From NCBI GenBank assembly GCA_964187785.1, contig OZ076409.1:26414001-26478000 (forward strand): a stretch of DNA of 64,000 nucleotides. The letters run 5' to 3'. Under the pieces are notes generated by a model. That model was not told the DNA's origin. It ran no database searches and worked only from the letters and a program-made list of their open reading frames with translations. This DNA comes from Amphiscolops sp. MND2022 (taxonomy: Eukaryota). Position 1 is the first letter of the stretch. Every line of letters begins with the position of its first letter. The translations under genes were made by a program, and so were the position numbers. This document shows positions 12,956 through 55,196 of the stretch, in pieces.

Positions 12956-13259
12956 CTATGCAACACCCCCACCTTCAACAATGTGCATTTTTTATACAGT
13001 TGAGGTGCTTTTTAATGTGCGAGGAAACAAACCAGGAATGGTCTGAGTCGACGCACGTTTAAGTGCGAAGTCTTTCAAATGAACGCAGGGACGCTTTTCG
13101 AAAAATTCTCGAAAATTGCACGATGTCAAAAATATTCAAATGAGGGACACACCATATCTAAGGCTCAAAAATCCAAAAAAGTCTCATATTACTGGAACTC
13201 TGACCCTCGAGCAATACGTAGGACGCAAATTATGTGAAATTTTGGGGAAAAATCGATAA

Positions 13260-21849: not shown

Positions 21850-22149
21850 GGATTGCAATGAAAAATTTCAAGAATATTAAAGGAAACGATAAAATTTAAA
21901 GAATTATGTGTTCGAAGGCAATATTTACACAAGAAACAGGATGCTGTCAAGATTAGTCTTCGAAATAAGCGTTTAGCTTGAAGGCGGAAAATTTTGGCTA
22001 AACGTGCCAAAAAGAAAAATGTTATCAGGTTGAACAAGCTTTGTTGCTGCGTGACTCAATAGACATGTACTGGGTTGCTCAATTCGCTACACCTCGTTTT
22101 TCAACACAGAATTTTGAAATTCAGGCGAAGCGCGACCTGTTTGAATTTT

Positions 22150-26970: not shown

Positions 26971-27461
26971 CCGAAAACTTGGATTTGCAGTGTTCAGTGT
27001 GCCAATGACGTTATTTGCTGCCTTCAATTTTAAAAATAACTCGACTTGAAACTTCTAATAAAATTACATTTTCGTATCATGAAAATCGAAGTTCGAGTAA
27101 GATACTGTTTGGGCGTAATGAGCGTTATGTTTTTACTTCAAAACTGGTTGTGCTCAAGCAATCTAGTCGCAGTGTTTCCACCGCCCGCACTTCTCAACAA
27201 AAGAGTTTCACAGTGATTGCAAAAATTCGGTCTACATTAGAAGGCTTGTAGTACAACACTGGCGGTGCTGTGGTCTGAACAACTAGAATATGATCACAGT
27301 TAACGGATATTTCTTACAATCCTAAGAAGGTTATAACGTGTGAGTCGTCCTTTGCTACATGAGATGTTATGAAAGCAGTGTCTTTGTTTCAAGGTAACTT
27401 TATCGATCAATTTATGTTGTATATTTTTGGTAAAGTTTATAGCAAGAGAAGAATCAAAAGT

Positions 27462-32069: not shown

Positions 32070-33551
32070 TCTTGGCCACAAATTCAGACTATGCGACTTG
32101 CGGTCTGAAACGAGAGAGTTGTCGCGCGGAAAAAGAAGCACCCGAACTTTCCCATAACACTTGCTTATCGCAAGTGTAATCATGTGTAGTGGAATCAATG
32201 CATTCATTCATTCATTCATAATTAATATAACTTGGTCAACGTCGATTGATTTTATCAACGGAATTCCTGAGGAATAACGTCTAGGAAATCAGATCGAAAG
32301 CCAAATCTTGTTCATTCCCACTTTGTATTTGGTTCGACTTTTGAATATATTTTGTCATATAAAGCCAAGCAATGTTCTGCCTTTCAGATCTTGTTCGATC
32401 GAAAAAAAACAACGTCGTCGAACAACTACTGCAACATGTCGCAAACTGAAAGAAAGTAAGAATTTTTGTTGGTACTCTAAAAATGCCCGACTCTTACAAT
32501 GACTAGTTTTTTCTTCAGACCACAGACCTTACACTTGAAGGTCCATTTTTACAGCCTTTTTCTGGGCCTTCCTACCTTACTAGGAAGCAATCTCTGGTGC
32601 GTCCAAAGGGTACCGCCTTTTGTTTACCATAGTTAAAGCTTTTATCGTTACTAAACTCTTACAGTGGGTAGTATTTCTTTCCTTTCACTCTGCATGGTCG
32701 ACTCTTTTGTTCATTTGTTCAACTTAATATAATGTTTCAAAGTTCGGATATATCGTTTTGAAAGTTCGGATATGATGTCTTCAAAATTTCCGATATAACG
32801 TTTTCGAAGTTCGTATTTAACGTTTTTGTCAAAGTTTGGATATAACGTTTTCAAAGTTCGGATACTTTTGTGTGCCTTGTTTCGACATCGTAGGCTTATT
32901 TTCGAAAAATTTCCAAGGTATTCAAAGGGTCCCCGTTTAATTTTTTGATAATTTGCAACAGAATGGATCGGCGCGTAATTTTTGGCAATGAGAAAGTACT
33001 AAAATTTTGAAAACAATGTCGTTTGCATGTTCAAAAAACGCGAGCGGGGCTCGACTTGGGCCGTTCCCGGTTTGTTAATGTTTCCAGTTGGATTATCAAG
33101 TAGTGTTTGAGCTTTATATGTGTATCCCTTCGGGTATTTTTTGGCACTAAGAATTTGATAAAAATTTAATAATACTGCCGTTTGCAAATTTAAGAAACTT
33201 TACTCTTTGAACTTTGAGCAGGGGCCGTTGGCGGATTGTTTTCACTTGAAGAAACGTATATCATACAACGTTAATTTGGAAAAACAACGGAATAAATCAT
33301 CATCAAATTGTGTTAACAAAGTGACTGCATAGACACCCTCTGATTGCACATATCGTTATGGCCTCTCTATATAAATTGAAATTCATGACAAATTAAAACA
33401 ATATTAAACCCTTTTTTAAATGTTCACCAGTCTTGAGTGTTATTCATCAAAATTTATTACTATATCAAACTACGCGAGTTAATTTTATCACAATGATCTG
33501 CGAAATCGCATGCTTCCGCACTAACTGTTCGATGCAGTAGAGGTAATTTTA

Positions 33552-34832
33552 AAGTAAACGTGTGGTTTGTCGGGACACACGAGGAAGTGAAAGCGAGAGA
33601 GAAAGATGCCGCTGAGCTAATGGCGAGGGTTGAAGTCGGAGAGGAAATAAATCTGTGAAGCATATCTCTGGGAGCTAGTACAACAAACATTGACCAAAAG
33701 CCCATCACATGGAGTGATGCTCCGTCCGCTCAAGAACAGTACAAAATTTTCTCAGATTGCGAAACCGAGCACGTAATAGCCCCGTCTAAACGGAAACAAC
33801 ATCAAGTTGCCTCCAAGAAGAGCTGAAGCTTATGACGGCTGAACTGTCGAAATCGGTTAGTGCTTCGGATACAGTCGTAAAACCTATTTTGGAATAGGTT
33901 TTATTATTTTTTTGTCTGTTTAGAACGAAATACATCAACAAATGTTGCGCAGCACTATGCGTGTGGAGTGTAAAGTTGACCAGTCACGATGTGCGCACGA
34001 GGAGTGCAAAAATCGGTGCCGCAAAAATTTCAAAGATTTTTCATCGATAGTAAGTATCCTAATCGTAGCTTCCAATTCGCTGCAGTACTGGCTGCACTGG
34101 AAAGACAGGAAGGGGTCAGTCACCTCAAACCTTTTCGCTTTGTTGCAGCATTAGCTGTGATATATAGTTCTCGACGTTTTTAGTTTTAAAAAACCAATGA
34201 AATTAAACTTCTCGTGCCTGGCGTTAAGACCAAAGTACAGAATCAAATGATGGAATCGATGACGAAAAACAACTCCTACGTTCCCGCCGCTGAAGACGTT
34301 CCACGTGTGTCCAAGATTTTCAAGGGTGAAGATCTCTTGGAGTGTGCTGGCGATGCTCCGACTTTATACGGTCGCAAAATTGCCCGGAAGCTCTGGTCGA
34401 GAGAGGAACTCAGTAACCCCATTATGTCACCGGGGAAGGATTGGGAGTTCAGGGAGTATCCCCGCAGTCCCATGACTCCAACGCGAAAACTCTCTTCCAT
34501 GGTTAATAGTTTCTTCGCGAGAATTGTTTTCCGGAAGTAAAAAGTTCATGTATCGTTGTAATTTGATATTTTAACCTTAGGTCGATGCATTGTTTAAAAA
34601 AAACGCTAAAGATGCTTGTTCGAAAGTTTTTGTTTCGTTGATATTTTCTCTTTGCTCAGAGCGCGTTGAACACAAGTTCCTTTCCGTTCCGGGATGCTAT
34701 ATCAAGTCCCGCAACAGCGTCGACCATTTGGGAACGGAGCTGAAAAACCGTTCTAAGAATGTGAAGAAGCAATCGATGTCACCGAGCACTTCGACAACAG
34801 GCTCAGCAATGATGTCTCCTGCGGAGGTCCGT
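33552..34832 (+). pseudogene. Second copy of the BEN-domain-like pseudogene
   Basis: Duplicate of 25690-26970 at +7862, with an extra TGA (CTG TGA) at ~33655. Confidence 0.6.
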
Positions 34833-35830
34833 CCGAAAACTTGGATTTGCAGTGTTCAGTGTGCCAATGACGTTATTTGCTGCCTTCAATTTTAAAAATA
34901 ACTCGACTTGAAACTTCTAATAAAATTACATTTTCGTATCATGAAAATCGAAGTTCGAGTAAGATACTGTTTGGGCGTAATGAGCGTTATGTTTTTACTT
35001 CAAAACTGGTTGTGCTCAAGCAATCTAGTCGCAGTGTTTCCACCGCCCGCACTTCTCAACAAAAGAGTTTCACAGTGATTGCAAAAATTCGGTCTACATT
35101 AGAAGGCTTGTAGTACAACACTGGCGGTGCTGTGGTCTGAACAACTAGAATATGATCACAGTTAACGGATATTTCTTACAATCCTAAGAAGGTTATAACG
35201 TGTGAGTCGTCCTTTGCTACATGAGATGTTATGAAAGCAGTGTCTTTGTTTCAAGGTAACTTTATCGATTAATTTATGTTGTATATTTTTGGTAAAGTTT
35301 ATAGCAAGAGAAGAATCAAAAGTGGTTAAATTGGTAGTGAATACAAGTTCGCCATTAGAAGAGTCAGCCGGAGTGTATGATAATAAGGGTGTTTCAAATT
35401 TTACTAAACACGATGATATTTCGAATGACCGTGACGTACTTTGAATATTTTTCGAAAACATGCATTACAGATGTTCTTGGAAATGAGCAAACTATTGTAA
35501 AGAACTGGCTTCAGCTGACGCTTAAGTTACCGCCGATTTTTCAAACGGCTGCAGTGTAACGTCACACAAAGTGTTGCAAGCGAACAAGGAGAACAAAAAT
35601 TCCGAATTGGAAGACCATCGGACTGGAGAGTACCAAACATCGTTGAAAGATTTTTTCCAACCAACCAAGTTCATTATTCACCGGCCAGACAATATACAAA
35701 TCTTGACGTTTTCGCAAGAAGAGATGTGAAAAAGGGTATTCCGATGAACTTAGCTGGGTTGTTGGCTGATATTCAAACATCTGAAGAGTTGCCAGCGCAT
35801 GCTCATGTATCTGTGTTCCAGCGAAAAAAT

Positions 35831-35851
35831 CATTACAAGACACAACTTTCA
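35831..35851 (+). repeat. Left TIR CATTACAAGACACAACTTTCA
   Basis: Exact reverse complement of 55174-55194. Confidence 0.97.
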
Positions 35852-36723
35852 GAGTGCGCGTAAATATACGTGTCTAAAATGCCTAAGTTTTCCTTATAAG
35901 CCAATATGCATTGAAGTATTGGTATTACTGATACATTTTTCAGTTGTTAATACATTACAAATGTATTCAGTTTCCTTAGATTTGATAATTATCAGATTCC
36001 TTATAATTCGTATACAAATGCCTCAAAATGTTTCCCCCCACGTTATAAGTAATCCTAGTACTCAAAACAAGTAATGTTGATACTTTGTATTATAAATCCT
36101 AATACGCTTAAAACTTGTTGAAAATAGGCTTCCTTATACAACTTGTGAGTATTCTTAGATTTCCTGATTTGAATTATAGTATCCATTGCAATATTATTCT
36201 GGTATTATTACAGCCAATGACATATACTGAATCAAATCTCTGTTGATATCTTATTCAATAAAGTGCAAATCCTGAACATTTCTGTATTTGAACCATTTAT
36301 TTGGGCGAATCGGCTGATATCTCATTCAATAAACTGCAAACCTTGAAGAAATCGTATTGTAAATGCCAGGGAATTGGAAATCTTAAACAATTTCGAATTT
36401 GAACAAGGCCATTGCCATGAACATCAATTTTCTCGGCGAGAGTTGGGATCTTCTCAAATCTTGATAAATCAAAGTTACTTCTTATTGGTGTTGATGATTT
36501 TAAATTCTATTTAAATTTAAATATTTGAATACAATTTAAATTCTAGAGCCATGGTATCAAAGAGGTCCCTGATTCAATTGAACAATCCTAGACAACTGAA
36601 AAGACCAAAGAACAAAGACAAAAGATTTTTTAACAAGTGAGCAAAGACAACAGATTTCAACAATAATCAAAATACAACAAAAGTTCAATGTTTTTCATCC
36701 AACAGTTGTGTCTTTTCGTTCAA

Positions 36724-39441
36724 TCAGTTGAACATTTTCCATGCTGCAGGATCGCCATAGTCAAACAGAACCTGGGTGAAAGGGGGAAGGTCTCTGAGTG
36801 CAACCAGTGCCACGTTTCTAGGCTTTTGAGGGAGTTTTCTGCAAACTACTTCCCCCAAGCGGGCTGTGCACTGCTTATTCCTGAGCCTTGAGTGATTGCA
36901 TAGTCTTCCAAGGCACAAATTTCGGGGATGGTGAGGACAGTCCTCATTGGATGCATCGACAAGACGCCTAATGTCTGTTGAAACTTCAATTATATAGGAC
37001 ATGTCACGGCCTGTTCTTGCAGCGTACGAGGCTGCATCCTTTTCGTCAACGAGACAACCATGATAGTCGCAAATGACATCGCCCTTTTTAAACGGCTTCA
37101 GTGTCATCACGCCACGACCCATGTCAGGATATGTGACACAGGTGATCCCGTCCCACGTCTGTGTGTCCTCACGGTGTAAAAAGTCGTATTGCCAACCCTC
37201 GTTGTTTGAGACACTGCTCTTGTACTCCAAGTTCGAATTGAAGGGTGCACCTCGAGGTTTTTGGGCGCTTTTTCCTTCCCGGTAGTCCAATAGAGTTTTA
37301 TGTAGCTTGGATTTGATTTTCCCGTCTTGCCATGACCCAACCTTGCACGTGTTCCACCCTTGTCGGAATGCATGGTCAAAGAAATTGGCATAGTCCGTTT
37401 CGGGATTTGCTTTGATGCGAAACTCATCGGCAAAGGCTTCAACCTGCGTGGAGAAGCGTTCAGTCCTTAGCGTCTGCAATCGTTTAGTGACAAGGTTTGT
37501 CAAATCCTCGAAGTTGACAGCTCTTCCAATTGAATTGTACAACAGATTGGAGACATGCTGCACTGACGGAAAGAGTTCATCCGGCTTGTAAGTTGAAGGT
37601 GTTTTCAGCCTGACGATACGTTTGAGGGCGAAATTCTCATCTCTGCAGTTGTGCCTCAGCTGTAATAAGCAAGAAATGAACAAATTAGACGTAGAGAAAA
37701 TAGATCAAAATTATATTATGTTTTGTTATCTTCCAAGTGTCACCAAATTCCTTAAACAAATATTCAAAGACCCTAAATGTTGCGTGAAAGAGTTTTGGTG
37801 AAAATGGTAGAATAATAGTTTTCGAACACAGAGGAACGATGTTCGAAACTGCCACGAAACGTAAACTATTCCATCATTTTGAAATTTAGTCTAAAATTTC
37901 TCTAAAAACAATAAACAATCCAAACAAATTCCAAAAACAATTTTTTGGCTATTTCATATGTCCCTTTCATATTGCATGAATTCTTAGACTCACTTTGACC
38001 ATCTCTTTCTTTGACTTATCTCGGAAGTTGATAATGGTGTTTCCGGTAGAATTGAAGAAGAAAGGCTCTGTCCAAACCAGCTTCTCACTTCCCTGAAATC
38101 GTGTTTGCATCTGAGGTACTCCAATCTTTGGTTTGAAATTCGGACGTACGTCTGAGTAATAGACTTGCAGGCCCCTTCCCACTATCCAAGAGATTGTGTG
38201 CGATCTGTAAAACGAATTTTGTGACTAGGAAACTAATATTTAGGGAAGTATTTTGACGCTGCTTATTTTTTTGAACTAACTGTTTTCACTGAAGTATTCC
38301 AAGACATTTTTCACGTAAACACTTTTTTTTTCACAGAAATGTTCCATGCAACTAATTTCGAACAATTTTCCACCCACCTGAAACCACCAGGGGTCCTCGT
38401 GTTCGCGCAGGTTAAGGTCACTGTCCCTCGAGTATCCGCCTTGGCTTGAAGTTCCGGGATTGTCTGCGCAAACAAATTCACTGTGAAGGTTTCTAGTTCA
38501 GCTGTTGAACATCTTGGTTCTGCGAACTCCATCAGGTAAACAATTATCAAATTGTGTAACGTCTTCCTGTCAGTGAAGGAGAGGCGAGATGAAAACTCGA
38601 ACTGTTCCACTAAATCTCCCATGAGATCTTCGCATGCATCGGCTGGAAACGCTCGATTCTGGACATAAGCAACATTGATGCTCCTAACGAAACTCTCTGC
38701 ATTGACTTTTTGTCGTTTCGACGCACGTGCTAACTCGTCGTTTTCTTCCTCATTCTGGCACGAATTTTTTCGTTTCCTCCGAACTTCGGAAAGTACTTGT
38801 TGAACCGGATTGCTCTCTGGAGCAGGTTGGAACCGGAATCGAGTTGAAGTGATGGCGTTCATTGTCAGCTCACTCGGCGTTGCAATAAAGTCACCTATCA
38901 TTGAATCGGTCAGCTGAGGAAGAGATGTACTTGGGTTGAGTGGCGTCGAAGTTGGAAGAATGAACTGGTAATCGAAAGAACCATTTACGGCCTGTGTATT
39001 AGCCCGAGGAGTAGCAGGCGGCGTTGGGAGAATTTCAGTCACCCCTCTCAGCAAGTGAGCAGAAGTGCTGAAAGCGGGAGTCTGAGAGAAGATAGGTTGA
39101 GATAAAGATTGTGGAAGCACCAACGATGTTAATTGAGGATCTCCATTCGCAGAAGCCTGTTCCTCTGCAGTTTTTGCAAAATTTGAGTCGACGGAGCTCA
39201 ATTTTTTCAATGCTGGTAATTGAGTCTCTCCATTCTCAGAAGCCAGTTCTTCCGCGGTTTTAGCAAAATTTGACTCGGTGGTGCTCATGATATTCGTTGA
39301 TGGTAAGTGAGAATCTACAACTTCAGGAGCCAGTATTTCTGCGTTTTCAGCGAAATTAGACTCAAGGGTGCTTATCATATTCGTTGATTGAACACAAGGA
39401 ACGAAGTTCTCAAGTTGCAGAACAGGAGTTTGTTGGCTCAT
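36724..39441 (-). CDS. SET-domain lysine methyltransferase (PR-Set7/SETD8-like), 3 exons, ~736 aa
   Basis: Exons 39441-38378, 38204-37994 and 37659-36724 join in frame through GT-AG sites (phases 2, 0). SET motifs MGRGVMTLKPFKKGDVICDYHG, LGRLCNHS, LVALRDL, VLFDYG; no post-SET cysteines. Confidence 0.9.
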
Positions 39442-39916
39442 GTCGGGATGTAGAGTTTTTTATCTCGAAGCAGCAGTTTTGAAATGCAAGTGTTCGACAG
39501 TTAACTGGAGATTGGAATGATATTTACAAGATTATCACTCAAAAAAACTAGTAGGCTCAATTCACACGTAATTGGCTCTAATAGCGCCTGAATTTGAGTC
39601 GACTCTTGATTTGCGTTGCAAGAGTGTTTGATAGAATGCTGAAGATTGGTGTGATAATTACAAGGATTATAACTCTCAATTACTGGTCGGCTCATTTTAC
39701 ACGCAATCGGCTGTAATCACGCCTGAAATTGAGTCGACTCTTGATTGATTACAACTACGCATACATATTACTTTAGTTGATTACAGAACGTTTTTAAACT
39801 GATCTGCTGACTTTTTTAGGCTGACTAAAAAAAACATTTATTCGTGGGGATGAAATAATTGAGGAATTTCAATTTTTGAGTTTTGAAAGTGTCAATTTGG
39901 GTTCCTTTAACAGGGG

Positions 39917-40861
39917 GACTAATTATGTGTCCATCGATTTTCTCAAATAGTAATCGAGACTAATATGTGCATCGACTCTCTTAAACAGTAGTCGAGACTT
40001 ATGTGTGCATCGATTTCCTTAAACAGTATTGCAGACTAATGAGTGCATCGAATTTCTTAAACAGTATTAAAACTAATGTGTGCATCGGTTTCCTTAAATA
40101 GCAATCGAGACTAATATGTGCATCGACTCTCCTAAACCGTAATCGAGACTAATATGTGCATCGACTTCCTTAAACAGTAATCGAGACTAATGTGGGCATC
40201 GACTTTCTTAAACAGTATTAAGACTTATGTGTGCATCGACTTTCTTAAACAGTCTTAAGACTTATGTGTGCATCGACTTTCCTAAACAGTCGTAAGACTT
40301 ATGTGTGCATCGACTTTCGTAAACAGTATTAAGACTAATGTGTGCATCGACTTTCCTAAACAGTATTGAAGACTAATATGTGCATCGACTCTCTTAAATA
40401 GTAATCGAGACAAATGTGTGCATCGACTTTCTCAAACAGTATTAAGACTAATGTGTGCATCGACTTTCTTAATCAGTATTGAAGACTAATGTGTGCATCG
40501 ACTTTCTTAAACAGTCTTAAGACAAATGTGTGCATCGACTTTCCTAAACAGTCATAAGACTTTTGTGTGCATCGACTTTCTTAAACAGTATTAGGACTAA
40601 TGTGTGCGCATCGACATTCTTAATCAGTATTGGAGACTAATGTGTGCATTGACATTCTTAAACAGTATTAGGACTAATTTGTGCATCGACATTCTTAAAC
40701 AGTATTAAGACTAATGTGTCCATCGACTTTCCTAAATAGGAATCGAGACTAATATGTGCATCGACTCTCTTAAACAGTAATCGAGACTAATGTGTGCATT
40801 GAATTACTTAAACGGTATTCGATAGTAATGTGTGCATCGATTTCCTTAAACAGTATTCCAG
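39917..40861 (+). repeat. 39/40-bp tandem array A (GACTAATGTGTGCATCGACTTTCTTAAACAGTATT(A/G)(A/G))
   Basis: About 24 contiguous degenerate units, no unique spacers. Confidence 0.95.
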
Positions 40862-41814
40862 ATGATTGTGTAAAGTGTAGAACAGGCATCAATTTTGTTC
40901 AACAGTACTCGACAGAACACAATTGATCCTACCAAAGTTTGCAATGCGCATTCAACTGTCATTGAAAATACCACAAGTAACGACAGTGCTGAAATTTGAT
41001 TGGTTGAAATGCTGAGATCTTCTGACCGCTAAGAAAAGGCATCGACTATTTTGTAGAAATGGCTTCAATTTACTTGAACTTTTTTCAAAATTGAGCGTGC
41101 GTCTGATTTATTTTACATTGACATTTCATTGTTTCAAATTCAGCTGCCTTCATTCATTAATTTCAAAAATTTAAACAAGCATCATCTCACTTTACTTCGC
41201 ACATCAACTTGTTTAACCTGTTGATCTGTTACTTCTCGGCTTTAGCTAACTAATCCTGTATTCTGTATCAATGTATTCTGTATGCTGTATCCTGTATCCT
41301 AACTAATAATGCCTGTATGCGATGGTAAGTTAAACAACTCTGCAATTTTGCTATATATGTATAGGGCTTTGTAAAAGATGACCTATCAAGCAATAGTCTA
41401 CGATGAAAAGATGGTACATCTTTTTACGATGAATTGAGTTATATATTACAAGGAAATATAGTGCAACGAACTGAGTTATGTCTATTTCACGCCTAGAGAT
41501 AATCAGAGTCTATTTACCAAATAGGCGTATAACTAACTAATCTGCCTTTTCAGCACAAATTTGCATGTAATTATTGCTTATCGCAAAAGCTTGGATCCTT
41601 CTATTTTTTCTGTTGTAACGAGAAACCTTGAATAATATAACAATTTTTCGACAATGTAAATAAACCCTTTTAACAGAATTTCTATTTTTTGGTTCAATCT
41701 TATTCAGTCTTGTATCTTTATATCCACAATTTTTATACTACAATTATTTCATGAAGTTTTGGATCTTTTCTGTTAGTTACAACCCCACCCACAGATTCAA
41801 TACCCCAATAACTG

Positions 41815-42610
41815 GCCAAAAAAGTTTTATACGGGAGAGCACAAAAATCGAAGCCAAAATAATGTTCCGTTGAAGCCTCCGGCATGTGTACATGTCAATT
41901 TTTGGAATCCTTTGATGAATTTAGAACCTCCCATTTCAGATTTAATAAAAAATTTTTCCCAGTGTTTCAGTTTTTCTCTATGACGTACATCAATATCTGG
42001 CCAAAAAAAAGCTTTTACGGAAAAGCACAAAAATCGAAGACAAAATAAAGTTCTGTGAAAGTCTCCTGCATGTGTGCATGTCAATTTTTTGAATCCCTAG
42101 ATGTATTTAGAACCTCCCATTTCAGATTTAATAAAAAATTTTCCCAGTGTTTCAGTTTTTCTCCATGACGTACATTAATAAGTGGCCAAAACAGTTTTTT
42201 ACGGAAAAGCACAAAAATCGAAGACAAAATAAAGTTCTGTGAAAGTCTCCTGCATGTGTGCATGTCAATTTTTTGAATCCCTAGATGTATTTAGAACCTC
42301 CCATTTCAGATTTAATAAAAAATTCTCCCAGTGTTTCAGTTTTTCTCTATGACGTACATCAATAAGTGGCCAAAACAGTTTTTTACGGAAAAGCACAAAA
42401 ATCGAAGACAAAATAAAGTTCTGTGAAAGTCTCCTGCATGTGTGCATGTCAATTTTTTGAATCCCTAGATGTATTTAGAACCTCCCATTTCAAATTAAAT
42501 TAAAAAACAAAAATCGAAGCCAAAATTTGTTCATTGAAACCTCCTGCATGTGTACTTGTCATTGTTTTGAACACCCAATCTGGTGTAATTTGGACCTCCC
42601 ATTTTGCATC
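41815..42610 (+). repeat. 184-bp tandem repeat (~4.5 units) upstream of the JmjC gene
   Basis: Period of 184 (e.g. ORFs at 42081 and 42265). Diverged inverted copies at ~44230-44560. Confidence 0.9.
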
Positions 42611-42748
42611 CAATAAATTTTTATTCTTTAGTTTTAGTCTCTTGTGGGGAAACAAATCCATTATTGGCAATTATTCAATTTTTTTTCAACGACTTCTTGA
42701 TGGGCCGCATGTGAGGTATTTTATGAATCGATTGTTGATGCTTTTAGA

Positions 42749-45700
42749 TTGTGGAGAGAGTTTCAAAAACGCCAAGACCCTGAAGCAGCACAGACGCCGG
42801 GGTAATGTGTCACATTGCGTTTTGAAAGCAGCTGAAGATTTGATAACGAAAAACAAATGGAAAACATGCATGTTTTGTGGCATGAAAGGCACTGCCAAGA
42901 GGGACAAAGATGGTGAAATGAAATTTTTCGAGTTTACCTGTCCCGCGGCAACTGCTCAGCATGCTTTAAACTACGACTGCAAATGGCAGCGAAAGCAAAT
43001 CGAAGATTCGAATCCACAGGCGATTATGAACAAGACGTACAAGGATTTTCAGGAAAGGGATTTCAAAGACCCAGACTCTTATGCTGATGAGTACTTGGCA
43101 GCAACTCGAGAAGTTGTCCAAGCGCTGACGCATGAAAAACAAGTTTTCAAATACACTCTAATGAGGAAAGAGGCATTCCTTCCTCTGAATGTGGACCACT
43201 ACAAAAAAGGACATAAAGCAGGTGCCAGCTGGGCTGACTATGGAAGCAACGTAGCCGCTCGGTCGTCCACGGGTAAAACGAATTATCAAATTACAAGAGA
43301 CTACACTGGCTCTCATTCTGTAAAGGAGCTGGATCCAACTCCACCGTTAGGAAGAATGTCTGGCACTCGTTAGTGTTGAATAAGTTTTTCAGTTCAATTC
43401 CCGACTGCATGTGAAATTAAATAGGACTTTCACTGCTTTTCTTGTTAGTAGTGTCTTCAGCGGCAACAACGACCACGAGAATGCCAAAGCCCGGAAGAAG
43501 GAGAGCAATATCTTGTTAGTACTTCGATGGTTATCTGATGTTCAACTTATTAAGATGTTCAATGCGTTTTTTACGTAATTGTTTTCAGGTTCGTTAACGA
43601 CCACGGGAACAACAACGCCTCGCAAAAGAAGAGCAACTTCTTGTTAGTAATTCGATGCTTCAGTGATGTGGTTTTGATTAGGTTTTAGATGCTTTTCTTG
43701 ACAATAGTGTTTTCAGCGCTGATAACGACCATGAGAATGCCGAAGCTTCGAAAGAGAAGAGCAACCTCTTGTTAGTATTTCGAAGTTTCACTGATGATGA
43801 TTTGATTAGTGTTTTCAACGTTTTGCTTGATTTATGTTTTTTCAGCCTCAAAAACAACAACGAAACTAACATCGCCCCAGAAGAGAAAGGCAACATTGTG
43901 TTAGTTTTTCGAAATTCGAAAGAAGTTGTATTGATTATGATTTAATGCTTTTCTTGAAAATGTTTTTAGCCCCGATAACGACAACAAGTATGACGACTAC
44001 AAAAATGACAAGAACGGCCGCGAATCCCAGCATATGCGGTCCCTTTGGGGAAGCTTCAACAAAAGATAATTGCGGTAAACCAAAACTTTTATTGCTAATG
44101 CTTTGAAAGAGTCTTTTGGGAAAACGTTTTCAAAAAACAAAAAAATGAAACTTCAAAAAATGTTGTAACAATAAGAGTACCAATGAATAGAACAACTCTA
44201 AGTTCAGTTAAGCAAAAAATAGCTTGATTACTTGCAGGAGACTTCAAATGATAATAAGTTTAGCTTGTCCGTTTTTTTTTAGATTTTACTGAACAATTAT
44301 TGGAATACGGCATGAAAGAGAAACAGAAAAACCTGAAATTTTTTTCCTTCAAATTGAATTGGGAGGTTCTAAATTCTTTTCCGGATTTGAAAAGAAGAGC
44401 TTGTTTATTTGCAAGAGACTTCAAATGAACATAAGATTGGTTTCAATTTTTGTGCTTGTTCGCTTTTTTTTAGTTTCCAGAACAAGTTTTGGCGTACAGC
44501 ATGAACAAAAATCGAGAAACCTTTTTACCTTTAATTTTGAATTTTTACATTTAGTTTGAAATGGGATTTATTATTCAGCTTCAAAATATTAGGGATATAA
44601 AATAAAGTTATTAGATTTGTTAGTTTTTTGAAGTCTTATTGATGTTGAATTGAATAAGATTTTTACTGCCTTTCTTAACAAAATTGTTTTCAGCCCCGCT
44701 AACGGCCACTAATCTTCTTCGTACTGCTTCTCCTCCTCCTACACCTGGTCCTTCTCGTATGGATTCTCCGCCTCCAACACCTGGTCCTTCTCGTATGGCG
44801 TCTCCTCCTCCTCCTCCTCCTCCTCCTACACCTGGTGCTTCTTCTTCTATGGCGTCTCCCCCTCCTACACCTGCTCCGTCTCGTTTGGACTCTCTTTTTC
44901 GTACACCTGGTCCTCCTCTTGCTCCGTCTTCTCGTCCTACACTCTTTCCTCCTCTACCTCCCCTCTTTCAGAAGGCTAAAGCAAGGAAGCGGAGTCCACG
45001 AAAATCCCTGACTCCAAAGAAACGTACGTATTATTTTTCCACTTTATATCCGGGGAAATGTACTAGGTATTTTAAATATTTCCTAAAATTTTTGTTTTGG
45101 AAATGATAGTCTGTGTTGACATTTGTTTTTGTGCTAAGGTGCCGTTCCTCCTACCGGCGGGCCCATTACTCCTGCAAAAAAGCGGAATCCAAGAAAATCG
45201 CCGACCCCGAGACGAACTCTTCCAACACAATCTTCTTGCAGCTATGATCGTACGTGGTTTTTTAAAAAATCTATAAACATTTAAGGACATTTTATAGGCA
45301 ATTATTTTTAAAAAATGTAAGCCTTTATTTTCCTAAACAACTGAATATTAAACATTGGCAATTGAAAAGTTGATTTCTTGTAGTGTCCTATCTTTTGATT
45401 TCGTGTGTTTTCAGCGATCAATTCAATTGACCCTGATGGCTACCCAACGTTTAGCGACGCCACAGAACTGCGCCAACTGGTGGAATGGTTGCCGATGGGC
45501 AAAGAGGGCATAGACTACTTGCAATACAAAGCCGAATTCTTTGATCAAAACTCAGCGCTTTTGAAAACGGCTCTAAAAGGAATTGTGAAGAAGCCGATGT
45601 TGATAGTTGATGCTCTCAGACTGAAGGGCTTCTCACACAAATTTGCAGCTGGAGACCTCAAACTTACCGATGAACGTTTATTCAGAGCAGTATTAGCGAA

Positions 45701-47089
45701 AGAAGATCCAAAAATGACAGTAAACTGCAGTTGGCTAAAGGGAGTAAGAAACTTTTGATTATTTTCTCAAATGAATGCTTAACCAACGTAGCGGTTGATT
45801 AGAAATCCTGAAAAATGACACATCTAAAGAAACTTGATACATTTATCATGTATAAATAGAGAAAAATGTATCAGTAATACACATTCTTCAAAGCACTTTG
45901 GCCTATAAGAAAACCTTATACACTTTAGACACTGAGCGTGAATTATCACTGTCAACAAGTTTCCAAGTCAATGTAGGATGAAATATCATCGGCAATAATT
46001 CTCCAGCCTTTTTTGTTAGAGTTATATTTCACTATTACATCTTTGTTAATTTTTCAGCACGAGTTCGAAATTGAGACCATGCCTCTGAAAACCTATTTCC
46101 TCAAGTTCGATCTCTCCAGACCAATGAACATCATTGATCTGAACGCAACAACAAGCAACAGTCTGCAGTTCGAGCCTGCGAACTTTGTGAAAGAAATCTC
46201 CTTGGGACACAAATTGCAAATGAGACTCCCAAGAGATAAGAGCAGCGTCTGGAAGCTAAACTACGTCATCCTCAGTCAAGCTGGGTGTTTCGCTGACTGG
46301 CACGTGGACTTCAGTGGAACCTCTGTGTTCTACGTCCTCCTTGCCGGAGAAAAAGAGTTCGTTTTTGTGAACGAGACCGGCAAGCTTGGTGAAGGACTGG
46401 CCAGCTTTCAGTCATCTAGGACAACGACATCCGTTAATAGGTTCTTCGGAGGCAGAAGAGATCTTCAGGCCTACAGAATCACTTTGAAAGCCGGACAGGG
46501 CGTTTTAATCCCAGCAGGAACGCTCCACTTCGTGTCCACAATAGCGAACAGTGTGGCTGTAGGGACAAACTTCTTGACTTTTCAGGAATACCGTTAGTAT
46601 CTCATGTTGGCAAAAGTTTGAATAAAATTTTGAAAAAGGTGGCTCCAAACTTATGATCATAAGACAGTATTGATTATTTTTCTTTTATTACTTAATGTTC
46701 AATGAATATTTAAAAAAGTTTTCTTTCCAGCTGCAGCACTCAATGAATTCATGAAGGAGAGGATCAGGAAGGTCAGATATTGCAAATGTTTTCCCCATTT
46801 TTGTCACCTGTCTGCTGCCATGGTATCTGAGTTTGTCCGTCGATGCAAACAAGCGAAATTTAACAAGCAAGCATCCCCACACCCCATTAACGAAGAAGGA
46901 GAAATATTTTGGCAAATTTGGACTATACATGAAGGCTATTCCTCAATGCTACCCAATTCCATGCGTAACGGGATCCGAAGATCGTTCCGTGCAAGTTTGA
47001 GTGAAGTCGCGAAATACAATACAGATATACCGCAGTACCCCAAACTCCCGGAGATAATCGAATACATGAACACCATGTGTGGCTTCTAA
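42749..47089 (+). CDS. JmjC histone-demethylase-like protein (KDM7/PHF8/KDM2-like) with Cys/His-rich N-terminus and basic/Pro-rich linker, ~860 aa; 5' end not determined
   Basis: In-phase exons ~42749-43368, 43461-43514, 43589-43642, 43717-43770, 43846-43899, 43970-44074, 44694-45023, 45139-45249, 45415-45719, 46058-46592, 46731-47089. JmjC motifs NYVILSQAGCFADWHVDFSGTSVFY..GEK..LIPAGTLHFVST..AVGTNFL (HxD..H intact), followed by FPHF. Confidence 0.9.
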
Positions 47090-47266
47090 ACCAGGGGTTT
47101 ATTTGAAAAAGAAGAAATAGTTCTTTGTTTTTGTTGAAACATATACCAGTAAGATTTAGATTTCATTAGAACTTGTTACTTTGCGACCTTTGCACAGGTT
47201 AATTCTGTTTGAAAACAATCTTTGTTTTTGTTGAAATTTGTACCAGTAAGATTTAAGGTTGAACTC

Positions 47267-48633
47267 CATCGACTTTTTTAAAAAGTATTCGAGACTAATA
47301 TGTGCATCGACTCTCTTAAACAGTAATCGAGACTAATATGTGCATCGACTTTCTTAACCACTATTCGAGACTAATGTGTCCATCGACTTTCTTAAACAGT
47401 CTTAAGATTAATGTGTGCATCGAGTTTCTTAAACAGTGTTGGAGACTAATGAGTGCATCGACTTTCTTAAACAGTATTAGGACTAATGTGTCCATCGACT
47501 TTCTTAAATAGTAATCGAGACTAATATGTGCATCGACTCTCCTAAACAGTAATCGAGACTAATGTGTGCATCGACTTTCTTAAACAGTATTGGAGACTAA
47601 TGAGTGCATCGACTTTCTTAAACAGTAGTAGGACTAATATGTGCATCGACTTTCTTAAACAGTAATCGAGACTAATGTGTGCATCGACTTTCTTAAACAG
47701 TATTGGAGACTAATGAGTGCATCGACTTTCTTAAACAGTAGTAGGACTAATATGTGCATCGACTTTCTTAAACAGTAATCGAGACTAATGTGTGCATCGA
47801 CTTTCTTAAACAGTATTGGAGACTAATGAGTGCATCGGCTTTCTTAACCACTATTCGAGACTAATGTGTCCATCGACTTTCTTAAACAGTCTTAAGATTA
47901 ATGTGTGCATCGAGTTTCTTAAACAGTGTTGGAGACTAATGAGTGCATCGACTTTCTTAAACAGTATTAGGACTAATGTGTCCATCGACTTTCTTAAATA
48001 GGAATCGAGACTAATATGTGCATCGACTCTCCTAAACAGTAATCGAGACTAATGTGTGCATCGACTTTCTTAAACAGTATTGGAGACTAATGAGTGCATC
48101 GACTTTCTTAAACAGTAGTAGGACTAATATGTGCATCGACTTTCTTAAACAGTATTGGAGACTAATGAGTGCATCGGCTTTCTTAACCACTATTCGAGAC
48201 TAATGTGTCCATCGACTTTCTTAAACAGTCTTAAGATTAATGTGTGCATCGAGTTTCTTAAACAGTGTTGGAGACTAATGAGTGCATCGACTTTCTTAAA
48301 CAGTATTAGGACTAATGTGTCCATCGACTTTCTTAAATAGGAATCGAGACTAATATGTGCATCGACTCTCCTAAACAGTAATCGAGACTAATGTGTGCAT
48401 CGACTTTCTTAAACAGTATTGGAGACTAATGAGTGCATCGACTTACTTAAACAGTAAGAGGACTAATATGTGCATCGACTTTCTTAAACAGTAATCGAGA
48501 CTAATGTGTGCATCGACTTTCTTAAACAGTATTAGGACTAATGTGTCCATCGACTTTCTTAAATAGTAATCGAGACTAATATGTGCATCGACTCTCCTAA
48601 ACAGTAATCGAGACTAATGTGTGCATCGACTTT
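47267..48633 (+). repeat. 39/40-bp tandem array B (same family and orientation as array A) with a 339-bp higher-order repeat
   Basis: About 34 units; identical ORFs at 47816 and 48155 show the 339-bp higher-order duplication. Confidence 0.95.
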
Positions 48634-48860
48634 GCCTCTGAAAACATATTTCCTGTGAGATTTCTTGTACCAGTAAGATTTAGATTTAATTAGAACTTGT
48701 TGCTTTGAGCCCTTTGCACCAGTCACTTCTGTTTGAAAACAATCTTTTGTGTGCAGATTTTTTTTCGATTATTTAAGACTAGGGTACATTATAGAAATAC
48801 AACGTCACAAAGGGAACAACATTTAAAACCAGCATTAATAACGAAATTAGGATGTAAAGT

Positions 48861-51800
48861 TCAAAACGATGACGTCTCATCTTTTTTTGTATGTCTTTTG
48901 CCAAATATCTTCTCGATGTCTTGTGTGAGGTTTGAGTAGTTTTGCTTCCGAAATTCTTTGATAAGGACAAACGGGCCTTTGGTAACTCCTTCAATTATTT
49001 CTTTGGCCTCGCATTGTCGTTTGAACAAGGGCTTCATGTCACGAATGGGCACTATTGGTATGTCATTTCCTGGTTTTATTTCATAGTTAGCTGGATCAAG
49101 CAAAGTACGTTTGTTCAAGCAATCAACAACAAACTTTACGTTCAAAAAAACAACTCCCGATTGTACATAACATCTTAACTTTAAAGCTCTTTCCTTTTTT
49201 TCGACAATTTTTTCACGTTTCTCCATTGGTCGGCCAACCCCTGGTTCTCCAGTTGCTATTCTAAGATCTGTTTCATTTTGTACTAAAACATAGCAAAACG
49301 GTAGATGGGAGTGCTTTTCAGTCAGTGTTTTCAGGGCATCTTGGGTCATTACCAGGCCGCCACATTCGAGAATCATCTTGTTCACTTGAACCTGCGTTAG
49401 GTTAGCTTTTCGAAAATCTCCAAATACGGTGAAACGTAGGCCTAGAAAAATCGAATCTTTCTCGCAAGGTGTATCGATTTGAATAGTCCTCGCTTTAATT
49501 GTTTTCCTACATATCCATAGGTAATCTATGTGGAAAGTTGGAATTGGCCGGAAGATACTGCGGAGCTGCATCATACACTCTTCAAAAGCGATTTGTTGCT
49601 TGCTGTGGATATAACATCGAAAAAACGACAAAACCAGATCTTGAAGCATGGGATCAACGTGAAGTAGTTTACCTCCCCCGCGCATTGTCTTTTGATGGTA
49701 GAATTGATGTGCTCGATGATTCGAGTGCTCCATTGCTTCGGTTAAGTGGTCCCAAGGTGACCGAATACAACCCGATTCGACCAATTTGGGAACAAGAAGG
49801 ATTTTCACTTTATATGGCGTAACTTCGCCAAAGAAAGCCATTGAGATATGATAATATGTCTCCGCCCAGAAATTGTATTCATCAATGAGTTTTTGAGGGA
49901 AACCGTTTTTCGAACCTCTGAGAATAATGTTCATATTGTTCAAGGATTGCCGCCATAGCTCTGCGGCATCGTACTTTGACATCAAATACCGTTTTGTTTT
50001 GTCTTCAAGTAATACTTCATGCTTGAAAAGTGTTTTGTGACACAGTTTAAGAGTTTCTAGGTTAGCCGGATGGCCCACTAAGTACTCGTTTTCTTTGAAG
50101 ACATTATCAAAAAGGTTGCTTTGTATTCCACTGTCGCTTCCAAATTCGTCCCGATGAGCAATCGCGAGCAGGGCTTCTTTTCCACTTAAAGACACAGAAT
50201 TGCAACTAGTTGGTCCGTTTTTGCTTGTATTGATATTAAATCTGAACCTGGGCTCCTTCACTCCTCTCTCGGTTAAATTGGATTCGAATAGGTTCAAAAC
50301 GGTGTAAATTGTTTTCCCGCGGGTCTCAATTAGTAGATTGCAAAACTTTTGCAAGTCATTCTCAACCATTCTTGTGATACCATGGCAAGTGTCAACGCAA
50401 ACTCTTCGGATGTCGTCAAGATAAACCAGGGAAGTTGACGGTAACACCTGCCAGGGTATATTCAGCGTTGTCCGTTTCTTCGTTTTGGGATCAACTGTCG
50501 TTGACAAAAAAGGTTGGAAAACTTTCTTTCCATCTTTAACGTCAAAACCAATTGACGACTTTTTGCCAACATAGATTGCGCATTTGGAGTCGTCTTCAAC
50601 GTTGTCACCATTAACCAATCGCATTACAAATGGCTGATCGCCGGACAACGTCAGTTTCACTTTGTAGTCCTCGACCAGCGTCTTTGTCTGCTGGTAAAGC
50701 CATCCACTCTTTTGAACTCCAACTTGTGTTGGGCCGAGGTTTTGTTCCATTGCAAATCTGCTATCATGACCTGCAAACATGTGCAAAACAGTCTCGTATC
50801 TGCATCTTTGGTACAAAAATATTTGATATAGCATGTTTTTGAAGAAAAGTTCTAGCGAATTGCTTATATTAATGCAAGTATTTACTTCTTTATTGAGGCT
50901 GGTAAACCAATGAGATTAATGTGAGAAAAGTTTCTTGATATTTTTTAAAAGATTTTCCGGGACAAAATTTGAGAAAGTTACAAACAGCTGATTTCGAGCT
51001 AATTCGGGACTTATTTCCGTTTTTCCAATTTTTTACCGTTTAATGCACAATTTCCTTCGCAAGTGTATGGTCAATTAACTCACATAATTCAAACGAATCT
51101 ATAGATCTTTTTCATATTCAAAATATATCAACAGTTTTCGAATCAGTTTAGTTGAATATAAAGCATCGACTGCGGTTCTACAGTTCGTTTGAAAAACAAA
51201 AAGGACTCGTTTAAAACAACAAATGTTGTTCACAACTGTATTCACATATGTAAAAACTTGAGATAGACAATAGATTTATCCACTACATTAAAAGCGCTTG
51301 AAAACATTCCATTATAGTTTGTTAATATTGCTACGCAACTCGTTTTCAGTTTAACATCTTTGCTTAGTTTAAACCATTGATTTTCTTGAACACTTTAGTT
51401 GAATAGAAAGTATTCATTTTTCCTAACAACGTTCAATCACTTTTGCACAAACCTTTGAAGGAAGCAAATGTGAAACATGCATCTGAAGATTGTGGACTGA
51501 TTTTCCCTTTTGTATCAAGAAATCGGAAAACCATTCTCGTACACTCCGAGTTCCCAATTTCAACCCCGTCACCCCAAAGATCAACTGCAACACCTTCTAA
51601 CGATTCAATTCCCGTCAGAAGGTAGTGAGAGGTTCTCACTAAGGTAATCAAATCGGCTCTAAAACCTGAGGTCTTCTCCGGTTGGAATATGTTGTAATAA
51701 AAGCAATGTAGAGGATTTGACAATTTGTTTAATGTTGTAACACTGGGAACTAACTGATCATTTCTTATGCCCTGTAAGTCAAATAAAGTCTTGAGATAAC

Positions 51801-52497
51801 CGACCAAATCAACAACATTACCAGTTTTCTTGATCAAATACAAATGCTCCATGAATTGATGGGTGTATCTCGAAGGGAACAGTGCTTTCATGATTTGTTT
51901 CAAATAATTAGGCCGTTGTACAAGTTTTTTTTCGGTAGCAATATAGGCTTTATTTTTCAAATGTTGAATCAAACTCCCAATTTCCAAATCTCGATTGTTC
52001 ATTTGATTCAACACATCACTCCAGAAATGATTGCTACTAGTACAAAAAGCGGGCTCGTGTAAATCCGAATTTTTTGCTATTGGTGGTTCTCGATTCTCCA
52101 GTTTCCGTAAGAATTTGCTAATTTCCGAGTTGTTTTCTACTGGCTTTCCGTCTGGAATGAATTCTGGGCCGAAGAAGTGTGCAACAAAGCGTCGGCGACG
52201 ATCTGTCCACGATAGGCCAGTGAATCCTTTAAAGACAAGCAAGAGTGCAATTTTGAATACCACAGCATTGTATTTTGCTCGTCTACCTGTCTCATTGCGC
52301 GTTGCACTGATGAAAACATCGGTGAATTGAACGTTTGTGCCATTCAAGAGACAAGTGATTGCTGGTTTCACTTTCCTTTGCTTGTCATTTATTGTTTCTT
52401 CTGCTAAGTAGTCGAATAACGATAAATCAACATACAGGCCTTCTGGCAAATTGATTAGGTGTTTTTTCAGAATTATCTCCTCATTGCAATAACTCAT
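48861..52497 (-). CDS. RAG1/Transib/Chapaev-like DDE transposase with C-terminal BRCT domain, 2 exons, ~984 aa
   Basis: Exons 52497-51453 and 50770-48861 join in phase 1 (FKG|HDSRF). Motif order DLWGDG, LSGDQPF, CVDTCHG, VTPY..LVP, TEAMEHSNH parallels RAG1 D600, D708, DALH, TNY..HVP and E962. C-terminal IFLGLRFTVFG..MILECGGLV..KFVVDCL..LLDPANY is the BRCT pattern. Confidence 0.8.
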
Positions 52498-52839
52498 TGT
52501 AATACCGGGACCGCTTTTAAGGAATAGGATTTCGAAATAAATGGGAAAACGTTTACCAAAATTAGCAACATTCACATTTGAGGCTTACTACATTCTTATA
52601 CGCTTATCCGCGTTAACGCTTTCATCGAAAAGAGAAACAGGTGCCGTAGATTTACATTTGGTGTCAACGGACTCACATTGCAACATCATCAAAAATCTGA
52701 GTCTAACACCAGAACTGAATTGAGGCAAATTATGACTTGCGAAGACGCAATTTAAAAGCATTCAGAAACCGTAAATTTCATTTTCCACTCTTCGCTTTAC
52801 CTCGAATCAAATTGGTCAATCAATTTTGAACAATCAACA

Positions 52840-54421
52840 ATGCTTTTTGCCAATGTTTTCTTCCAGACTAAGCCAGTCGTTCAAGCTTTGGATCCTGACA
52901 CTCAAATCTGGGAGGAGGCTAAAATCGAAGGTTTTGAAGGCACCAATCATGTTCGTGTTAATTTTACGCGCTGGGGAAAAAACAAGGACCCTGTTCGGGT
53001 TCTTTTTTGTGACCCCCAAGTTCATCTTGAAAATTGGCCAGTCAGGAAAGCTCTTGAAGAAGTTCTATTTCCCAGACGACACAATATTGATTACAAACTG
53101 GATTACACTAAGGAAAAATTCGCAAAAGGCGATATAGTATATTTTGTTGGGTCGACTGCGCCATCGGTTGGTGATATTATGGAGCCTTGGGAGATGAAAC
53201 AAATGATCCAAGAAGCATCAGTTTTGAAATCTGGAACTGTGCTAATCAATGATAGGTTTAGAAAAACTTTGCTGATTTGCTCCAATGTGGAGAAGTTTTA
53301 TATTTCGTACAACCAGTTGAGGAACTCTGACTGGCAAAAAGAAGGAATAGCTGACGAAGAAGAAATGATACCAATCCCAGTTGCCAAAAAATTGAAAGTT
53401 GAAGTGAAAGCTGTAGTGAAAGAGAAACAGTCGAAGATCAACATTGGAGACATTTTGCGGGCATTGTGCGGATCTGACGAAACCGTTAGCCTGACACTTG
53501 TTCCCACTACGAACGGAATACTAGCAGCAGGATCACGTGTTGTAATAGACTTGTCACAGACGGGGGTTGTACGAAAGCTTTTTTTTGACCGCAGGGAGGC
53601 GCACGCGATGGCAGAAGTAACTTTAGACGGGAGTAAGAGATACATTGGACTGCCAGCCACAGAAGTTCGACTGTCAGTAGACCCCAATCAATCACTTAAG
53701 AAGCAACAGGAAATCAATTATATGAAATCCCCAGAACTCACAGTGAGGAACCCTAACTTGCACCCAGTTGATGAAGTTTTCACAGTGTTTTCCGCCATCA
53801 AACGGGAACTTTTCCTCTCTTACGACACAATCAGCCACACAGAAATAATATACAGTCCTGTGCCATTTTACATTAGGCAAGTTTTGGGCTGTGAATCGTC
53901 AAGAGATTCGGTAAGCATATGCTAATTGTCAAAGTAGTTAATAGCATCATTGACAACAAGTCTTTGAAAACACTGTGGAGTGTAATTATTGAACTTCCCA
54001 GGGCATTGAAAATCTTGAACAATTTTTTAATCCAGCGTTGCAACTCCAAGGGCTTTCATAACTTTCAGCAATTTTGTATCTGAAGACTATACATGAAACC
54101 TTCATCAAGCGTTTGTTTTATAATTGTATTTCATTAGTTTTCTTCCATTGGCAGAAATTCACTATCAACGAGGAGCGGGGATCGCATGGAAACAAAGTGT
54201 TTGATGAAATTCTCGGTAAGAAATGGGATCTCCTTGAAACCAGGCCGGATGCTGAGAAGTTTTTCAATCATGTCCTCTTGGGGGTGCGGTTCAAAGTAAA
54301 AACCAGTCTCGCTTTTGAAGCCCTCAAAATTCAAGTTCAAGGACACAGAGGAAACTACGAGGACTATGAAAACTATCGCGAGTTAATCTCGAAAAACACA
54401 AAAACCTCCTTGGCAGCTTGA
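52840..54421 (+). CDS. Accessory protein, ~445 aa, 2 exons, with N-terminal Tudor/chromo-barrel(MBT)-like domain
   Basis: Exons 52840-53910 and 54155-54421 join in phase 0 (TCG|GTAAGC, GCAG|AAA). N-terminus VQALDPDTQIWEEAKIEGFEGTNHVRVNFTRW resembles Royal-family EAxD..WYxAxI....vxvhFxxW. The gene call is firmer than the domain call. Confidence 0.7.
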
Positions 54422-55173
54422 TAACTTGTGCATTTTCAATTATTCGTTTCTGTTTTTTGATGTAAATTTTGGTTACTTTGATATTCGTTAGATCATATTA
54501 ACATTTACTTTTACCAATAAATAAATTCGAGGAATTAGATAGCTCTTGATTCGATTTTTGTCGTTGAATTATTTCAACTACTTCTGAGGAAAAATGCTAA
54601 GCTGGTAGAGAGTGAAATTTACAATGAGCAAGAGGAGGCATCGGAATTCTTAAACAATTTTACAGGACAAAGTGTATAACTTGTGATTTAAAAAACTTCT
54701 AATTGTGTATCAAAATTACTTTATTAAAATTACTGTGAATCAGCGAATTGCTGCAAGCGACTGCAAACGCATTTTCGTCAAAACCACAATAACATGCGTT
54801 TTTATTAGGATTACTAAAGATTAGTATAAGAAATCCTATTTGTGTATAATGAATCCTTTTTGTGTATAAGAAATACTGTTTGTCTATATGTTCTCCGCGG
54901 AAATAGTATAACTTATACTTGACACTAGTATAAGAAATCCTTATAATGGGGATATTTATGGATATTTATTAGAAATCCTAATAAGTCGCATTAGGTTTCC
55001 TGATAGTAGGTATATAAAATCCTCCGTTTTCACCAAATATTAAAAATCCTTAAATTTTCGAAAAAGTTAAAACATACAAATAGGTAATAATAATACAAAA
55101 AATAATACATTAGGGGCCAGTGAAAATTCCCTTGTGGAGCATTTAAGGATATTTAATAAACTTTTGAGGCTCG

Positions 55174-55194
55174 TGAAAGTTGTGTCTTGTAATG
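55174..55194 (-). repeat. Right TIR
   Basis: TGAAAGTTGTGTCTTGTAATG followed by the AT TSD. Confidence 0.97.
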
Positions 55195-55196
55195 AT

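Follow-up and report, generated by a model that had tools for sequence, protein, structure and literature searches.

The question raised by this locus is whether a gene with a JmjC histone-demethylase domain belongs to its host or to a transposon and, if to the latter, what it may do there. The locus lies in a stretch of 64,000 nucleotides from Amphiscolops sp. MND2022 (assembly GCA_964187785.1, contig OZ076409.1, positions 26,414,001 to 26,478,000 of the forward strand), called the window here and supplying all coordinates. An initial annotation, made from the letters alone, described 45415-47089 as a transposon-borne JmjC demethylase and a plausible anti-silencing factor. The JmjC gene was found to be mobile cargo of a young cut-and-paste transposon, so the transposon-borne part of that description was borne out. 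That the gene encodes an active, zinc-finger-targeted demethylase directed at the element and working mainly against its silencing is given a probability of about 0.45 from sequence evidence.

The borders of the transposon were obtained by comparing the window with itself. Joined together, 32074-35830 and 55195-59294 correspond to a sequence that is uninterrupted at 24212-32066; the left flank is identical to the uninterrupted copy at 3752/3757 positions and the right flank at 4091/4100. Excision of the element in silico together with one AT regenerated the uninterrupted copy. The element, its ends and its insertion site are the following.

35831-55194, no strand: DNA transposon, 19,364 bp.
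35831-35851, plus strand: left terminal inverted repeat (TIR), 21 bp, starting with 5'-CA, perfect complement of the right end.
55174-55194, minus strand: right TIR, 21 bp, ending with TG-3', perfect complement of the left end.
35829-35830, no strand: left copy of the target-site duplication AT (alternative parse: 22-bp TIR, 0-bp duplication).
55195-55196, no strand: right copy of the target-site duplication AT, with the same two-parse caveat.
27967-27968, no strand: empty site within the uninterrupted copy of the flanking sequence.

Only two parses gave matching element ends, namely a 21-bp TIR with an AT duplication or a 22-bp TIR with none. No further TIR matches at up to 4 mismatches were detected elsewhere in the window. 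TIRs, a target duplication (0 bp long in the alternative parse), an empty site, a DDE transposase and many copies were all present, as in a TIR DNA transposon. A host KDM7 gene lying beside a transposon was ruled out, as the JmjC gene sits between the TIRs. The flanks form a 7.86-kb tandem duplication of 99.8-99.9% identity (24212-32066 versus 32074-35830 plus 55195-59294) with the transposon in the second copy only, showing that the insertion is very recent or younger than the duplication.

The gene order in the element is SET (minus), 38-bp array, JmjC (plus), 38-bp array, transposase (minus) and a Tudor-like open reading frame (ORF, plus). Three tandem arrays were found by repeat analysis.

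39925-40862, plus strand: 38-bp tandem array flanked by the SET and JmjC genes, which lie head-to-head.
47267-48633, plus strand: second 38-bp array, between the 3' ends of the JmjC and transposase genes.
41806-42507, plus strand: 184-bp tandem array in predicted JmjC intron 1, with an inverted relative at 44214-44462 in intron 7.

The core of the 38-bp array occurred 44 times, always within the element and nowhere else in the window; the unit had been reported as 40 bp. An inverted pair of 136 bp (78% identity) was observed between the left subterminal region (35870-36004) and JmjC intron 10 (45798-45932). Rfam gave 0 matches across 35000-56000. The TIR sequence, the transposase and the JmjC profile were all without a match in viral contigs, and the viral fold library gave no match at E ≤0.001.

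The predicted JmjC gene has 12 exons between 41309 and 47089 in a single open frame of 873 aa, and the region 45415-47089 corresponds exactly to exons 10-12.

41309-41324, plus strand: exon 1, predicted from a donor screen; 16 nt with the ATG and the first Cys of finger 1.
42748-43368, plus strand: exon 2; two C2H2/C2HC-type fingers and a helical region, from a weak Pfam zf-C2H2 match and an alignment with the distant locus L004.
43461-45249, plus strand: exons 3-9; basic Pro/Ser/Thr linker of 253 aa, with exons 3-6 each corresponding to a 54-nt unit of a 128-bp repeat.
45415-45743, plus strand: exon 10; segment before the JmjC core, in frame, with a weak match (E 0.11) to the corresponding segment of a KDM7-like protein.
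46058-46592, plus strand: exon 11; catalytic core by Pfam and PDB matches, with H-x-D...H, Asn, Tyr and Lys retained and Thr replaced by Ala at 46292-46294.
46731-47089, plus strand: exon 12; helical C-terminal part and stop codon, in frame, matching the clade member P0042 (E 2e-04, pairwise).

Host introns are short and follow the GT-AG rule, and the SET8-like and SUV4-20-like genes would suit an invertebrate animal. The splice sites were picked from a candidate list with the frame in mind, and the open frame through 12 exons is therefore not an independent test of the model. The match of exon 2 to zf-C2H2 (E 0.0022, below the cut-off) begins at model position 6, so the missing start of the finger is supplied by exon 1; only 1 of the 17 strong donors in 39450-42700 sets a Cys at the required place, and the same donor has an in-frame ATG. 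The joined linker exons contained 0 stops in the model frame versus 10 and 4 in the other two frames. They are Cys-poor, and the four repeat-derived ones, each of 54 nt, are separated by introns of 70-75 nt. L004, which lies on a separate record and is 30% identical, has the same order, with a similar Cys-x-Phe-Cys...His-Ala-Leu...Cys finger ahead of a Pro-rich stretch and JmjC at the end; its finger aligned weakly with the second finger of exon 2 (E 0.029, pairwise). No alignment was obtained between exon 10 and the corresponding part of L004 or between exon 12 and a canonical KDM7-like protein. The structure model of the N-terminal region was unusable (pLDDT 41.7), and its Atlas matches to zinc-finger-like clusters were of low recognition and uninformative. 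Frame and homology indicate that exons 1-12 are very probably spliced into one protein. That the N-terminal exons form a separate gene is quite unlikely: there is no stop before JmjC under the model, and L004 has the same order. The initial annotation had proposed that the usual PHD/CXXC module is replaced by a different Cys/His-rich N-terminus. The motifs are real and probably part of the same protein; they lie at about 42750-43000, outside 45415-47089, and the 16-nt exon that provides the first Cys of finger 1 had been overlooked.

The JmjC exon (46058-46592) passed the Pfam JmjC threshold with 28.6 bits (cut-off 24), and 14/14 of its PDB sequence matches were a KDM7 homolog, PHF8, KDM7A, KDM2A or PHF2, the best at 1.1e-16. 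A profile built from 17 related sequences matched PHF8 (E 1e-48), KDM7A (3e-45) and KDM2A (2.5e-42) far better than JMJD6 (6e-06). The HVD motif was located at 46301-46309 and GTS at 46316; the GEK lysine occupies 46352-46354, and the distal His 46526-46528. The broad KDM2/KDM7 family was thus nearest among solved structures and the Fe(II) triad H-x-D...H was complete, in agreement with what the initial annotation had read from these motifs and with its claim of intact Fe(II) ligands. Phylogenies were then obtained from the 150 best matches. After three frameshifted or chimeric rows were dropped, a FastTree of 148 rows placed the window protein in a long-branch group of 24 rows apart from 124 canonical rows (support 95), and a quick IQ-TREE analysis of 52 selected rows, with its careful search unfinished, gave the same split (SH-aLRT 99). 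The phylogenetic check that had been proposed therefore places the protein outside the canonical set, on long branches, and long-branch attraction is possible. KDM7-like and KDM2-like labels, taken from the Pfam domains of 67 matches, formed no clean groups. Judged from its sequence, the domain appears KDM2/7-derived and cannot be assigned to KDM7.

In the protein collection, the JmjC exon was present as 11 variants on 21 contig records and the finger exon likewise as 11 on 21. The 21 records are not a copy number because they may include haplotypes or repeated assemblies. Variant counts for other parts of the element were 14 for the SET N-terminal exon, 25 for the SET domain, 16 for the Tudor-like ORF and 22 for the transposase, with 15 members listed for each of the larger variant clusters. 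Young JmjC variants were 94-100% identical, and the Fe triad was intact in 10/11 of them and in 4/6 variants of an older subfamily (78-81% identical). The size of the longest record of each variant was used as a proxy for a shared contig. By this proxy, 10/11 young variants coincided with another gene of the element and 5/11 with the 15 listed transposase members, while 4/6 of the older variants coincided with the older transposase or SET. Differences between the subfamilies had changed 2/43 conserved columns versus 13/63 other columns (permutation p 0.03; BLOSUM test p 0.055), a column bias that may be taken as modest evidence of selection. We consider it improbable that the JmjC gene is a passenger, a captured host gene carried without benefit. 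The long branch, the lost conserved residue, three decayed copies (P0289, P0038 and P0039) and the modest selection tests would suit a passenger; its 12 exons in one open frame, the bias of changes to variable columns, its retention with SET and transposase in two subfamilies and a non-host domain order common to a distant locus argue against one. Two distant JmjC relatives, L003:1-691 and L004:1145-1835, were 95% identical to each other; one of them, L004, has an in-frame stop together with a short tandem-repeat tail. Such features would be expected of dispersed copies in decay.

Two further cargo genes were recognized in the element.

36724-39441, minus strand: SET8/KMT5A-like methyltransferase gene from open models; three predicted exons, about 755 aa, first donor ambiguous.
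52840-53925, plus strand: 361-aa ORF with a Tudor/chromo-barrel-like N-terminus, a weak lead from Atlas; conserved in 16 variants.

The SET domain was supported by Pfam (SET, 5.7e-11), and 14/14 of its PDB matches were SETD8/KMT5A, the best at only 2.2e-10. At the switch position Phe stands in place of the Tyr of wild-type SET8, as it also does in PDB entry 3f9w. Phe was found in 13/22 listed variants, the remaining 9 being without the motif. We assume that Phe at this position allows di-methylation, for which the literature search found no source. The Tudor-like ORF matched Tudor_3/Agenet/53BP1-Tudor features in Atlas (≤0.83, low recognition), with no Pfam match and no meaningful PDB sequence match. 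An open stretch past this ORF (54146-54421) has a possible splice acceptor and may be its last exon.

The SET8-like gene, the BRCT domain of the transposase and the Tudor-like lead, all on one element, could alternatively belong to a break-repair or target-site module, in which a SET8-like writer and a Tudor-like reader would work with BRCT and JmjC to adjust H4K20-type marks where excision or insertion breaks the DNA, and not transcription. In DNA-damage responses H4K20 methylation is written by SET8, erased by PHF8 and read by the 53BP1 Tudor domain (PMC6130214). Such a module is unlikely here: the Tudor assignment is weak, the JmjC domain was not placed within KDM7, and zinc fingers with internal repeat arrays better suit locus-specific control. 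A writer and an eraser placed head-to-head around one repeat array, both distant from their host relatives, would also be compatible with a non-histone substrate, such as the transposase or the Lys/Arg-rich linker, modified as an on/off switch by the JmjC and SET proteins together. The zinc fingers suggest DNA instead, and we hold this reading to be very improbable.

An element with histone-demethylase-like, histone-methyltransferase-like and possible mark-reader genes suggests that it manages its own chromatin. As we picture it, the two zinc fingers and the basic linker would tether the JmjC protein to element DNA, most simply at the flanking 38-bp arrays. The KDM2/7-derived domain would bind Fe(II) and demethylate a mono- or di-methylated histone lysine at the element, probably at a rate reduced by the Thr to Ala change. 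Together with the SET8-like writer and the Tudor-like reader, this could keep chromatin on element copies permissive and allow the transposase to be expressed. Linkage kept in two subfamilies, retained Fe ligands, changes biased off conserved columns and the finger-linker-JmjC order shared with L004 support the targeted anti-silencing demethylase, and precedents make anti-silencing plausible, namely transposon-borne SET and TET/JBP cargo (PMC12730594) and the repeat-targeted VANC (PMC5735166). What the cargo genes appear to have in common is H4K20, to whose chemistry the SET8-like, Tudor-like and BRCT parts would all relate. A more far-reaching version, which we hold to be doubtful, is a RAG1-fold lineage (without zinc motifs, with BRCT and an AT duplication) that carries a complete self-targeted writer/eraser/reader circuit for H4K20-type marks at its own 38-bp arrays, its zinc-finger-guided, KDM2/7-derived eraser belonging to a rapidly evolving JmjC family that is possibly specific to transposons and its SET8-derived writer having an altered product switch.

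Several observations weigh against an active, element-directed demethylase. Thr occurs 3 residues before the first His in 143/146 motif-matched relatives, and the window protein has Ala there (46292-46294), as do 11/11 young and 5/6 older variants. This Thr is presumably a 2-oxoglutarate ligand (the roles of Asn, Tyr and Lys are likewise assumed), so that Asn, Tyr and Lys of the ligand set are present and Thr is replaced. The initial annotation had overlooked this change, and its description of an intact demethylase holds for the Fe ligands only. Mutation of the equivalent Thr in yeast Jhd1 reportedly lowers activity. The fixed change raises the alternative of a non-catalytic or near-dead JmjC protein that binds methyl-lysine or a silencing protein and shields the chromatin of the element, in the manner of Epe1, which counters silencing yet shows no demethylase activity in vitro (PMC7192584). 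Two subfamilies about 20% apart have retained both His, Asp, Lys, Asn and Tyr, and loss of one hydroxyl may merely raise the Km; this alternative thus appears rather doubtful, and the odds slightly favor a catalytically active domain, as far as its residues can tell.

Other points against the targeted demethylase concern substrate, targeting and company. No PHD was matched by Pfam in exons 2, 10, 11 and 12 or in the Pro-rich ORF, no JHD was matched in the JmjC protein, and no KDM2-type CXXC, PHD or F-box was matched after JmjC, where a stop codon follows 118 aa past the core. The domain sits on a long branch and was not nested with KDM7-like rows in two trees. The substrate choice of PHF8 and KDM7A is tied to PHD (review PMC6130214); because PHD and nesting are both lacking, the KDM7 substrate list (H3K9me2, H3K27me2 and H4K20me1), which the initial annotation had transferred to this protein, does not carry over. 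Binding to DNA and its target are conjectural throughout, and the linker exons were no better conserved than their own introns (56-74% versus 69-77%). A wider divergent JmjC set comprised four loci of 1.1-2.1 kb, 0/4 of which matched the other proteins of the element; the set could not be tied to transposases because these loci were too short. The co-carried methyltransferase, absent from the earlier account, is unexpected under a pure eraser model; the methyltransferase-like gene fits a repair model or a write/erase model equally well.

The window protein shares with KDM2/KDM7 proteins (KDM2A, KDM7A, PHF8, PHF2 and the fungal Jhd1 type) the JmjC core, the H-x-D...H triad, Lys, Asn and Tyr, scoring far above JMJD6. 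It differs in having no match to PHD, CXXC, F-box or JHD, in the Thr to Ala change, in the two fingers and 253-aa linker in front, in being transposon-borne and in its long-branch position apart. Targeting of JmjC proteins to DNA by C2H2 fingers is known from plant REF6 and yeast Rph1, which are KDM4-type host proteins with C-terminal fingers. Epe1 of fission yeast is likewise a JmjC anti-silencing factor with an altered cofactor site, but it is a host gene. In fungi, TET/JBP genes are carried by DNA transposons, and in oomycetes SET genes are carried by HarbingerS and MuDR, with an anti-silencing role inferred (PMC12730594). Those elements also hold intact chromatin-modifier cargo within TIRs, whereas here a JmjC and a SET8-like gene occur together, plus a Tudor-like ORF. 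VANC of the Arabidopsis VANDAL transposons is an accessory protein acting on DNA methylation with demonstrated targeting (PMC5735166). It resembles the present case as an accessory protein on a DNA transposon with non-coding tandem repeats as candidate targets; the JmjC protein differs by its enzyme fold, and its targeting is putative.

Transposon-borne SET and TET/JBP genes and the repeat-targeted VANC are thus already known, and the pairing of JmjC and a SET8-like writer, in a RAG1-fold lineage that is yet to be placed, is new. The word JmjC occurred 0 times in the main texts, as accessible, of PMC12730594, PMC6431247, PMC3597677, PMC12859917 and bioRxiv 10.64898/2026.08.24.746577; PMC4455052 was used for classification only. 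The literature search returned no description of such an element, its scope being such that Repbase Reports, subscription journals and the supplements of PMC12730594 could hold the lineage. Outside plants and fungi, the means by which transposons withstand histone-based silencing are largely unsettled, and the young, multicopy, intact element with defined ends therefore makes the question of chromatin resistance directly testable. If the proposed role is true, a demethylase that brings along fingers to direct it to DNA would lend itself naturally to sequence-specific editing of chromatin.

The transposase that would mobilize this cargo was modeled as follows.

48861-52497, minus strand: transposase by gene model and fold comparison; two exons, about 984 aa, RAG1/Transib fold and C-terminal BRCT.

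Both halves were found within one ORF in the relative P0004. There were 36 relatives at E ≤0.001, several of them multicopy and none annotated beyond 'hypothetical protein'; no relative was detected in prokaryote genomes, no Pfam transposase family matched, and 0/16 longer relatives scanned had JmjC or SET fusions. The structure model of exon 2 (pLDDT 74.4) aligned best with BbRAGL (Z 11.6, rmsd 3.9, 239 residues), followed by RAG1 (Z 11.0) and HzTransib (Z 8.9), and the C-terminal domain aligned with BRCT folds at Z up to 11.3. Foldseek alone gave nothing at E 0.001 (best E 0.05). The CMCT clade is defined by CA..TG ends, 2-5 bp duplications and C(2)C plus H(3-4)H motifs (PMC12730594). The element has 5'-CA..TG-3' ends with a 2-bp duplication under the 21-bp parse, D-D-E-type residues and, in the model, a RAG1/Transib-like catalytic fold. 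It differs in lacking C(2)C and H(3-4)H and in having a C-terminal BRCT and an AT duplication: H(3-4)H was seen within 45 residues before the last E in 0/28 rows, and any CxxC in 3/28, none of them the window protein. Judged from the modeled fold, the enzyme would act like a CMCT transposase yet lacks one feature of the clade, the zinc motifs. Transib has a 5-bp duplication and a CACAATG heptamer (PMC1131882); both are absent here, and membership in Transib was rejected. The family may be an unnamed lineage, and it offers a fresh comparison point for RAG1 evolution, with the fold retained and the zinc motifs not.

The surroundings showed further features. The element inserted into a 1.23-kb tandem array (26300-35830 plus 55195-64000), the unit of which holds a decayed SET fragment nearest to SUV420H1/KMT5B (E 0.022, 8/9 PDB matches). 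Another segment of the unit, with no Pfam or PDB match, is in our estimation BEN-like. The array is possibly the remnant of another chromatin-cargo element, which would make a second H4K20 theme. Outside the element, an ORF with a double MYND finger (E 7e-22) at 17929-18306 and a 475-aa ORF without a Pfam match at 11547-12974 (minus) perhaps form one host gene. A decayed stretch at 22063-23100 with weak helix-turn-helix matches is presumably Tc1/mariner-like. A near-perfect tandem duplication of 651 bp lies at 20553-21852.

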